NCBI GenBank assembly: GCA_963722075.1
Contig: CAVRJM010000001.1
Span: forward strand, 149,898 to 213,897
DNA length: 64,000 bases
Source of the DNA: Candidatus Babeliales bacterium
Lineage (GTDB): Bacteria; Babelota; Babeliae; Babelales; JANWKD01
Reading direction: 5' to 3'
Shown here: piece by piece, positions 50,708 to 53,438 of the stretch
Numbering within the stretch: the stretch's first letter is position 1
Layout of the letters: the number at the start of each line of letters is the position of its first letter
The notes under the pieces: generated by a model
What the model saw: the letters and a program-made list of their open reading frames with translations, nothing else
What the model was told of the DNA's origin: nothing
The model's database searches: none
Made by a program: the position numbers and the translations under genes

Positions 50708-50782
50708 TGGAGCCGATGATCGGACTTGAACCGACGACCTATTGATTACGAATCAATTGCTCTACCACTGAGCTACATCGGC
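50708..50782 (-). tRNA. tRNA-Thr (anticodon CGT), CCA encoded
   Basis: The reverse complement is GCCGATGTAGCTCAGTGGTAGAGCAATTGATTCGTAATCAATAGGTCGTCGGTTCAAGTCCGATCATCGGCTCCA. It folds as a cloverleaf with anticodon loop TTCGTAA. Confidence 0.92.
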
Positions 50783-50827: not shown

Positions 50828-51205
50828 CTATGCAGCTTCTTTAGCCGATTCTTCAATACGTTCTTGGCATTTAAGACAGCGGGTTGCATTAGGGTATAAT
50901 TTCAAGCGTTTTTCTGAAATTGGTTGATTACAATCAACACAAATACCATATGACCCTTCAGCGATCATTTCTAATGCTTTAAGAATGCGATTATACTCGT
51001 CCAGTTCAGCGTCTTGCAGAGAAATTTTAAGTGTTTCCATAGAAGAAGACGATGCTTGATCACCAATATCCTGTACTTCACCGGGGTTATCCGTTTTATA
51101 CAGTTCGCCCAGTTCTTGATCCAGTTCTTTTTTACGTGTTAATAATTTAGCTTTTATTGCAGATAAGTTTATGCCTTCTCTAATTATTTTTTTTTCCTCG
51201 CTCAC
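50828..51205 (-). CDS. dksA: DksA/TraR-family C4 zinc-finger regulator
   Basis: Coiled-coil N-terminal part and CVDCNQPISEKRLKLYPNATRCLKCQ. Confidence 0.85.
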   Translation of the reverse strand: MSEEKKIIREGINLSAIKAKLLTRKKELDQELGELYKTDNPGEVQDIGDQASSSSMETLKISLQDAELDEYNRILKALEMIAEGSYGICVDCNQPISEKRLKLYPNATRCLKCQERIEESAKEAA

Positions 51206-51655
51206 TCGAGATCCTTCTTTCTTTGAAAAATTTTTTTAATAAGGTTGCTGATTCCTGAAGGCAGATTCCTGAAATAATTTCTAAAGTATTTCTTCTATAT
51301 ACCTGAAGAGGGCCTTGGTTGTCAAGTTTGTAACCAAATAAAGGAGAAGAAGCACCAAAAACTACCCCACGTAATCTGCTTAGTAATATTAAATTCATAC
51401 ACATGGCGCATGGTTCCAAGGTAACATAGAGCCAGCATCCCTCAAGGCGCCAATCTTTTTGGAAGGCGCATGCTTTAGTAATTGCTCGTATTTCTGCATG
51501 GGCTACTTGCTGTTTTTTTTCTCTACCTGATTATAGCCGCGACCAATAATAGTGCCGGTAGAATTCACTACTAGTGCTCCAATAGGAACCTCATTTTGCT
51601 TATAGGCGCGCCGTGCTTGGGCAAGGGCCTGTTTCATATATAATTCATGATTCAT
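51180..51655 (-). pseudogene. tadA: tRNA-specific adenosine deaminase TadA, interrupted by a frameshift in an A8 tract
   Basis: The N-part (51503-51655) reads MNHELYMKQALAQARRAYKQNEVPIGALVV..GYNQVEKK. After the A8 run (T8 on + at 51513-51520), the frame with QQVAHAEIRAI..LYVTLEPCAMC.. (HAE and PCxxC zinc motifs) continues to 51180. One extra A (A9) would make a single ~158-aa ORF. Confidence 0.85.
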
Positions 51656-53438
51656 CGGTACCCTGCAGAAATCTAATAAGATCTTCAGAGGCATGAGGGG
51701 TAATATAATCTGATGCAGTTCTTCCTTGGTGATCTTTCATCGTTTTATCAGCGCCATTATTAACGAGTAATATTACTGCATTAGTATTATTACGACCTAC
51801 TACTATCATAAGCGGGGTAATGCCTTGATTATCTGGTGAATTAATAAGTTTTGTAAGTTGGTGAGGGTAGGTCGTGTGTAGTAGCAATTTTAAGCAATCA
51901 AAATTGTGTTTCGCGGCAAAATGGATAGCATTGCGTCCCTTATTATCAGTTAAAAATATATCGGCTTTAAAGTCGTGAATTAATGTTGATGCCACTGGAA
52001 ATAGATTATGCTTAATGGCCTGATGTAAGGGTGTACGCCCTTTATTGTTTTTCTTATCAAGAAATGAACGATGTTGATCAACAAGCTTTTCTAGTAATTG
52101 AGGGCAATAAATTGCAAAGTGTATAATTGCATCACCTCTATTAGTGACATGAGTGGTATCGGAATTGGGTAATAATTTTAAAGATAACTCGCTATCATTA
52201 TCACGAAGTGCGTTCATGAGCGCGGTTTCACCAGTATCATCACATTGGTTGATGATATTTGGATAGCGGCATAATGTATCAATTGTGGTAGGATCTTTAT
52301 GGCAGGTTGCGTACCATAAAACGGACCTTTTTTGAGAATCAAGGATGGCTGGATTAGCGCGTTTAGCAAGTAATCTATTAAAAGTTTCTGGAGAGATACC
52401 AGATTTAACGCATAATTGTAATAAGGTACATTTTCGATTCTCACAAAAAAAATATATATCATACGCATCATTTATATGGGCCCACCAACTATCATCAACT
52501 AAATGTATGTTGTTAGTTATAACAGCTAATAATAAAAATAACTTATTTTTTTGAGCAATGGTCAATTTCGGTGTGTCTGTTAGTAACTTATCATATGCTC
52601 CGTCTTCAACTTGTTCAACCAGTTCTTCATATGCTCCAATTCTAACGTGCCCCTGCGGAGCATGATAGTTTGTTGGTAATTCGGTGACTCTATCTTTAAA
52701 TTGGATTTCCGCCTGCGCAACCATATAGTCCGTTGCTAATTCTGGAGCATGATTAAGTATTAGTTCTAATAAATGAGTATTACGATTAGTAGCATTTACT
52801 TTTTGCCATAAATATTTCTTGGTAATAATGTTAATTAATAAGCTTGCAAGTTTTTTACAATCATATATAAGCGCATTATGTAACGGGGTCATACCGTTCT
52901 TATCTGGTGTTACTATATCTAAATATCCTGCATTGCGCGGTAATTTCTTGCGATCACAAAGTAGTAATAGTTCCGTTGCTACCTTAGGATCTCCATTACA
53001 AATAAGCGCATTAAGGGGCGTTTGCCCAGCTGTATTAGTAGCTTCTAAATTACAGCGATAATTTTTTAATCTATTATGTAATGATGCTATGGTTCTTGAT
53101 CGGTGAATAAAAAAATCCGGCTTACATTCGCCTGATTCTAAAAATGTAGCAAAGTCAACATGAGCTTTTAAGAGGCTCTCATAATCTTCATTTTGAAGTA
53201 ATGGTTCAATTTCTTTATGGGTTAACTTTTTATTTTCCAGTGCATGTAATATGCCATCTATGGCTAAGGTAATTAAGGAAGGTAGCTGGTAGGTATCGTG
53301 TAAGGGTTCTACCGGTTCTAATATAGTAGGGTCAATATCCATTATAGTAGGATTAACATTCATTGTAGTATGTTCCATATCCATGGCGGCTATAATGCTC
53401 GTGCAAAAAAGTGAGAATAAAAGAATATTTTTTTTCAT
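51645..53438 (-). CDS. ankyrin-repeat protein, secreted
   Basis: MKKNILLFSLFCTSIIAA|MDME, then many ANK units (GQTPLNALICNG, GMTPLHNALIYD, GETALMNALRDN, GRTPLHQAIKHN, GRNAIHFAAKHN, GITPLMIVVGRNN..LLVNNGADK). Confidence 0.88.
   Translation of the reverse strand: MKKNILLFSLFCTSIIAAMDMEHTTMNVNPTIMDIDPTILEPVEPLHDTYQLPSLITLAIDGILHALENKKLTHKEIEPLLQNEDYESLLKAHVDFATFLESGECKPDFFIHRSRTIASLHNRLKNYRCNLEATNTAGQTPLNALICNGDPKVATELLLLCDRKKLPRNAGYLDIVTPDKNGMTPLHNALIYDCKKLASLLINIITKKYLWQKVNATNRNTHLLELILNHAPELATDYMVAQAEIQFKDRVTELPTNYHAPQGHVRIGAYEELVEQVEDGAYDKLLTDTPKLTIAQKNKLFLLLAVITNNIHLVDDSWWAHINDAYDIYFFCENRKCTLLQLCVKSGISPETFNRLLAKRANPAILDSQKRSVLWYATCHKDPTTIDTLCRYPNIINQCDDTGETALMNALRDNDSELSLKLLPNSDTTHVTNRGDAIIHFAIYCPQLLEKLVDQHRSFLDKKNNKGRTPLHQAIKHNLFPVASTLIHDFKADIFLTDNKGRNAIHFAAKHNFDCLKLLLHTTYPHQLTKLINSPDNQGITPLMIVVGRNNTNAVILLVNNGADKTMKDHQGRTASDYITPHASEDLIRFLQGTDES

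Follow-up and report, generated by a model that had tools for sequence, protein, structure and literature searches.

A tadA gene split at an A8 tract in a Candidatus Babeliales genome is probably an under-counted homopolymer

In the deposited genome of a Candidatus Babeliales bacterium (GCA_963722075.1), tadA is divided between two reading frames at a run of eight A's. The best explanation, which we consider probable, is an artefact: the gene would be intact, with a GAG-AAA-AAA-AAA (A9) stretch recorded as A8, and the one-base under-count would already be present in the reads and have been carried into the consensus. The organism would then make an ordinary full-length TadA (158 aa) that deaminates A34 of tRNA-Arg(ACG). 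An artefact is favored because the same deficit is seen in indispensable genes that occur only once, because the spectrum of homopolymer lengths is cut off at its upper end, and because the broken genes show no decay. The host of the locus is a small intracellular Dependentiae bacterium. Positions given without a contig name refer to the window, the whole stretch of 64,000 nucleotides that was analysed (contig CAVRJM010000001.1, positions 149,898 to 213,897 of the forward strand); those prefixed C1, the main contig, C3 or C4 refer to contigs of the assembly.

The tadA locus

The gene occupies 51180-51655 on the minus strand. A preliminary description had reported it as split by a frameshift in an A8 tract, and the deposited sequence contains exactly this: a T8 on the plus strand at 51513-51520, with two frames meeting at a clean one-base break. 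In frame 0 of the minus strand, the N-terminal part (51503..51655, minus strand) starts at the ATG at 51655 and runs for 50 codons, from MNHELY to GYNQVEKKNSK (reading MNHELYMKQALAQARRAYKQNEVPIGALVVNSTGTIIGRGYNQVEKKNSK), before a premature TAG at 51503-51505; it encodes the start of the deaminase fold, namely helix 1 and the first strands. The frame switches in the A8 run (51513..51520, minus strand; codons GAG AAA AAA AAC), where the zero-frame heptamer is the slippery sequence A AAA AAC and a zero-frame stop follows three codons downstream. The C-terminal part (51180..51512, minus strand) lies in the -1 frame, which opens just upstream of the run and reads ...EKKQQVAHAEIRAI...EPCAMC...GKKNN as far as the TAG stop at 51180-51182; a longer reading of the same frame to the stop at 51180 is ...EKKQQVAHAEIRAITKACAFQKDWRLEGCWLYVTLEPCAMC...ERGKKNN. 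The zinc-ligand motifs earlier assigned to this part were found in it. HAE (codons CAT GCA GAA, 51492..51500, minus strand; context VAHAEI) supplies the zinc ligand His and the catalytic Glu, PCAMC (51399..51413, minus strand; context EPCAMC) supplies the PCxxC ligands, and both align with the same motifs in solved TadA structures.

Each part matches the PF14437 profile, the N part over positions 1-47 (E = 4.8e-9) and the C part over positions 46-142 (E = 1.7e-19). As the first match ends at 47 and the second begins at 46, nothing has been lost at the joint. The two frames are not a chance pair of ORFs. The frame is restored, as had been proposed, by one added A: the A9 reading gives NQVEKKKQQVAHAEIRAI with the spacing of every relative and yields a 158-aa protein that covers PF14437 1-142 (E = 2e-33). 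This protein aligns over its full length with TadA chains of known structure (7cph, 4e-34; 2b3j from S. aureus, 1e-27; 1z3a from E. coli, 9e-26), and guanine and cytosine deaminases score far below the TadA chains in the same PDB search. Its best NCBIfam model is the TadA equivalog NF008113, covered over model positions 6-160 of 165; the curated cut-off of this model, which is centred on enterobacterial TadA, is missed (109 bits vs 150).

The neighborhood is compact. A dksA/traR-type zinc-finger gene (50828..51205, minus strand) overlaps the 3' end of tadA by 26 nt, and the stop codon of a 597-aa ankyrin-repeat gene (51645..53438, minus strand) overlaps the tadA start. The contig of the nearest relative (L022) has the same layout of tadA and dksA, with PF01258 adjoining tadA. 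The overlap of tadA and the dksA-type gene (51180-51205) spans an A9 run, and the nearest relative has exactly the same sequence throughout it, A9 included. The tadA of the sister genome (G001) stops at an earlier TGA, and the sequence past this TGA is still conserved, which presumably reflects the dksA coding sequence.

Is the break confined to the consensus? A Logan k-mer contig from run ERR10755947 (L105, 3857 bp) is 100% identical to C1:200635-204491 and reads A8. Neither of its ends is at a homopolymer: one falls in a tRNA gene, namely inside tRNA-Thr(CGU) (50708..50782, minus strand) downstream of dksA, and the other in a conserved gyrB motif. The Logan collection also contains the truncated 50-aa N part (an exact match), a 74-aa C fragment and the truncated products of valS, gnd and comM. 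The majority of reads in ERR10755947 therefore say A8, which excludes a polishing slip, and the break is genuine at the level of these reads as well as of the deposited sequence. A single uninterrupted tadA frame is absent from the assembly and from L105 alike. The 1.47-Mb genome holds one copy of tadA, and no second was found in it.

Conservation and age of the break

Across 40 related genomes from 21 families of the same order, tadA is in one frame in all 40; internal TGA codons flagged in the relatives' genes proved to be merely terminal stops. The nearest relative, which is the best match among 5.8 billion protein clusters, is a 158-aa protein of 82% identity encoded on a megahit (short-read) metagenome contig, where EKKKQQLAHAE is read in a single frame. 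Its DNA at the site is GTA GAA AAA AAA AAA CAA, an A11, against GTA GAG AAA AAA AA-C in the window; the lineage thus encodes Lys-Lys-Lys with A's alone, a stretch from which exactly one A is missing in the window. An exact-pattern scan of genome and metagenome contig collections, with the organism's own genome excluded, returned no version of the site with A8, A9 or A10.

Both halves had been described as well conserved, and comparison with the nearest relative bears this out: dN/dS is 0.13 in the N half and 0.16 in the C half, values of purifying selection, and neither half carries a second lesion. The lack of further damage and the intact frame in the 40 relatives also uphold the earlier argument against long-term pseudogenisation. 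With one frame in all relatives and a dN/dS of about 0.15, the gene is neither an old pseudogene nor a case of programmed frameshifting, and the break is either very recent or not real.

Frame breaks elsewhere in the genome

Frame breaks were counted genome-wide by searching all ORFs of the sister genome G001 against this genome with tblastn and keeping those junctions where the target frame truly closes, with rRNA and antisense-ORF matches set aside. This homology census was used instead of a purely ORF-based scan for fusions at homopolymers, which was swamped by ordinary gene junctions. About 17 breaks were obtained, six of them at sense-strand A8 or A9 runs, and all six of these are one-base deficits. 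Besides tadA they affect an AAA-ATPase-like gene (C1:8617, at an A9 run), comM/yifB (C1:104287), ruvX/yqgF (C1:1210623), gnd (C1:1247438) and valS (C1:1272042). The deficit in valS, ruvX, gnd and comM is at A8, as in tadA. No further lesion was found in any of the six genes. Five of them (comM, tadA, ruvX, gnd and valS) occur once in the genome; for the ATPase-like gene there are diverged paralogues, of which the most similar (C1:861155) shows 50% identity.

Both valS and ruvX are universally essential. Among the 119 relatives of the order in which valS was found it is intact in 118, and the lone exception is a plainly degraded assembly; apparent splits in two others (G075 and G089) are single frames with an insertion. 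Since valS, ruvX and tadA are struck as readily as dispensable genes, the process responsible is blind to function. The breaks away from homopolymers are located in IS elements, in paralogue families, in a DUF gene and in a leuS that is duplicated; these are places where real decay is expected. Sequencing error, rescue by slippage and compensated loss had been offered as candidate explanations of the split. They are the right set, but they were weighed on tadA viewed alone, and the A8 deficits in valS, ruvX, gnd and comM shift the weight towards sequencing error.

The AAA-ATPase/PD-(D/E)XK-like gene broken at an A9 run lies outside the window (C1:7619-8751). Another NCBI assembly has, on a 1489-bp contig, an intact 378-aa version whose protein is identical to the A10 reading. 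There may thus be a second, short-read assembly of this strain, and the intact version supports the reading of these breaks as artefacts.

Several other features were noted. Measured against this genome, G001 (905,774 + 712,466 bp) has about 89 breaks of frame, most of them in short runs or outside homopolymers, and its rpoB and rpoC are fragmented into many pieces; it looks like a long-read assembly of low accuracy. Because of these breaks G001 was dropped as a clean reference and served only as a source of protein queries. On the main contig leuS (C1:814897-817331) is in at least four pieces that are about 87% identical to an intact 848-aa leuS (C3:17394-19937), and 2.4 kb of leuS-flanking genes are near-identical (2 mismatches) between C1 and the 21.5-kb C3. 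Two readings fit the arrangement: a segmental duplication in which one of the copies is decaying, or the binning of a second strain into the assembly. C3 was rejected as a duplicate for gauging assembly error, being a diverged copy (87-100% identity). An IS630-family transposase is split into two frames at an A9 run (C1:1013726-1013734), and one added A fuses its HTH and DDE parts. A programmed transcriptional-slippage site is known for the IS630 family, and this A9 looks like such a site rather than an error. A 309-aa transposase-like ORF (C4:371-1300) encodes a protein 92-100% identical to copies in G001 (its C1 near 92,783 and its C2 near 711,811), while housekeeping genes of this genome and the sister species are only about 70% identical, which suggests either a recently shared IS element or cross-sample carry-over.

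Homopolymer lengths and the sequencing platform

The A/T runs of this genome number 781 at length 8, 150 at length 9 and six at length 10, and none was found in the assembly at length 11 or more. The comparison set, 554 kb of fragmented, short-read-like assemblies of relatives, holds 342 runs of length 8, 67 of length 9, six of length 10, three of length 11 and three of length 12. The drop from 8 to 9 is alike in the two (about 0.2), but runs of at least 10 are depleted 4.5-fold relative to A9 in this genome (Fisher p = 0.0035), and 13-16 runs of at least 11 would be expected from the relatives. The absence of these longest runs looks like a platform limit on homopolymer length. In all Babeliales sampled, A/T runs fall about 5-fold from length 8 to 9 and about 2-fold per step below 8, and the 5-fold drop at length 9 is consistent with runs being selected against once they reach the length of the transcription hybrid (9 bp).

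In the reported Nanopore R10.4 consensus the vast majority of runs up to about 10 (below 11) are resolved, single reads have difficulty at lengths of 8-9, and problems persist from length 10 upwards (PMC9262707); the pattern seen here matches that behavior. We infer both the platform (long-read and Nanopore-like), to which the 1.42-Mb contig is a pointer, and the true length of the tadA run. Long ORFs of the genome contain 85 in-frame A9 runs on the sense strand, and the in-frame A9 that lies 300 nt downstream in tadA itself matches the nearest relative. An under-count would accordingly touch about five of 90 true A9 runs, some 6%. This small proportion counts against an artefact, as do the A8 of the Logan contig and a search of 15 billion public proteins in which no intact tadA, valS, gnd or comM of the same strain was found. 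Should ERR10755947 be an Illumina or other short-read run, or HiFi, the deletions would be real.

Slippage and loss as alternatives

If the deletion were real, how would TadA be made? The serious rival to an artefact is a recent deletion from A9 to A8 after which full-length TadA is still produced, at a reduced level, by slippage; this is possible, in our judgement, rather than likely. Either the RNA polymerase would slip back and add an A to some transcripts, or the ribosome would shift by -1 on A AAA AAC, and either route would put K or N, both tolerable, at a position that is variable. Recurrence of the A8 in an independent k-mer assembly of the reads speaks for such a deletion, as does the nature of the genome, which is small, AT-rich and host-dependent (34.7% GC, 1.47 Mb). 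Such a state would correspond to the tolerated poly(A) frameshifts of insect endosymbionts, which have been described in retained genes of Blochmannia (Blochmannia vafer, PMC3017870). Transcription errors at A/T runs are mostly +1 insertions and rise exponentially with run length (PMC5574713); an inserted base is the change needed here, and insertion would also account for the finding of deficits only, in six of six breaks. Yet restored frames are unseen in the Buchnera transcriptome, where no case was recorded (PMC5574713), and the frameshift in tadA is kept in no relative. For rescue to be general, valS and ruvX would likewise have to be expressed through slippage, and this on a run that does not reach the length of the 9-bp RNA:DNA hybrid. 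Ribosomal slippage would receive no help from a stimulatory structure, as the next 93 nt, at -20.6 kcal/mol, are no more stably folded than shuffled sequence (z = 0.21), and slippage of either kind leaves the missing runs of 11 or more unexplained.

A second alternative, which we consider improbable, is that tadA has really been inactivated and that its loss is tolerated, with an unmodified tRNA-Arg(ACG) and tRNA-Arg(UCG) together sufficing for the four CGN codons, as a first step on the path along which some Mollicutes came to live without TadA. The preliminary description had called TadA essential, which is too strong: B. subtilis survives deletion of the tadA homologue yaaJ with CGN decoding intact (PMC10454642), and some Mollicutes have lost tadA in a stepwise manner (PMC3711424). 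Given these precedents, an unrescued loss is less far-fetched than was assumed there. The tRNA-Arg set of the genome (ACG, UCG, CCU and UCU) would also permit it. The tRNA check suggested earlier shows ACG to be present and GCG and CCG to be absent from the genome, but it does not reveal compensation: the sister genome has the same tRNA-Arg set alongside an intact tadA, so tRNA-Arg(UCG) is not a specific compensation. Nor is there any sign of adaptation to life without inosine in the tRNA set, in tRNA-Arg(ACG) or in Arg codon usage. The tRNA-Arg(ACG) gene (C1:972578-972654) is intact, with a normal cloverleaf and the anticodon loop CUACGGA, and CGT and CGC are still the two commonest Arg codons (9.7 and 7.6 per thousand). 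Retention of tadA in 40 of 40 relatives argues in the same direction. Moreover, the identical lesion in valS is not tolerable in this way, and a separate explanation for tadA would be unparsimonious.

The last alternative, an evolved programmed frameshift of the dnaX kind or a TadA split into two subunits, is very improbable: the slippery A AAA AAC with a zero-frame stop three codons on is suggestive of a programmed site, but none of the 40 relatives shares the break, the nearest metagenomic relative is in frame and the downstream structure is absent, while a two-subunit enzyme was rejected because the N part has no catalytic residue and the first ATG, GTG or TTG in the frame of the C part is the TTG at 51419, past HAE, so that this part cannot be a separate active subunit.

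Implications

If the A8 is an artefact, at least five to six genes of the reference genome are falsely rendered as pseudogenes at A8/A9 runs, and the length of long runs has probably been underestimated across the assembly. Annotation of the lineage and metabolic inference from it would then need correcting, for example for the pentose-phosphate pathway (gnd) and tRNA editing. It is doubtful, although it deserves consideration, that the deletions are real and that a Dependentiae endosymbiont keeps tadA, valS, ruvX, gnd and comM out of frame at A8 runs and lives on full-length products of transcriptional (+1 A) or ribosomal (-1) slippage. Were this true, the phenomenon associated with Buchnera and Blochmannia would be known from a new phylum, from shorter runs and from an aminoacyl-tRNA synthetase that is universally essential. 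Slippage would then have to provide an intracellular bacterium with both its valyl-tRNA synthetase and its wobble inosine. Such reliance of gene expression on error would be striking, and it would offer a natural test of the minimal amount of TadA per cell.

Comparison with known systems

Recoding of dnaX uses a -1 ribosomal frameshift at A AAA AAG in E. coli and transcriptional slippage on an A9 in Thermus thermophilus (PMC5009743). The tadA locus resembles these sites in its A-rich slippery run and nearby zero-frame stop. The dnaX sites are conserved, are accompanied by stimulators and give two useful products, and the tadA site shows none of the three.

Mollicutes and B. subtilis are like the present organism in combining tRNA-Arg(ACG) and tRNA-Arg(UCG) without tRNA-Arg(CCG), and in having a reduced genome; there, either A34 or I34 is able to serve all CGN codons. 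They differ in that here, the break apart, tadA and the tRNA it acts on show perfect conservation, codon usage is unadjusted and the relatives keep tadA.

The intracellular symbionts Buchnera and Blochmannia offer a further parallel. Poly(A) frameshifts in their genes were reportedly described by Tamas and colleagues in 2008 as being rescued by polymerase infidelity. As here, the genomes are AT-rich, reduced and intracellular, otherwise intact genes are broken in A runs, and +1 transcript insertions run in the direction that restores the frame. In those symbionts, however, the frameshifts persist across strains or species and mostly occupy runs of at least 9-10, whereas the break in tadA is at an A8 shared by no relative. 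An out-of-frame tadA held under selection in other strains or species was not found, as no other genome has the break, although purifying selection itself is seen.

Consensus errors in homopolymer length, by which genes become fragmented in long-read (Nanopore) assemblies (Sereika et al. 2022, PMC9262707), complete the comparison. The present case is unlike a simple error of that type in that the deficit recurs in an independent k-mer assembly and that about 6% of A9 runs are affected. It is like them in that one-base deficits are confined to the longest A/T runs, genes are affected whatever their essentiality, long runs are compressed, and most runs of up to 9-10 are correct.
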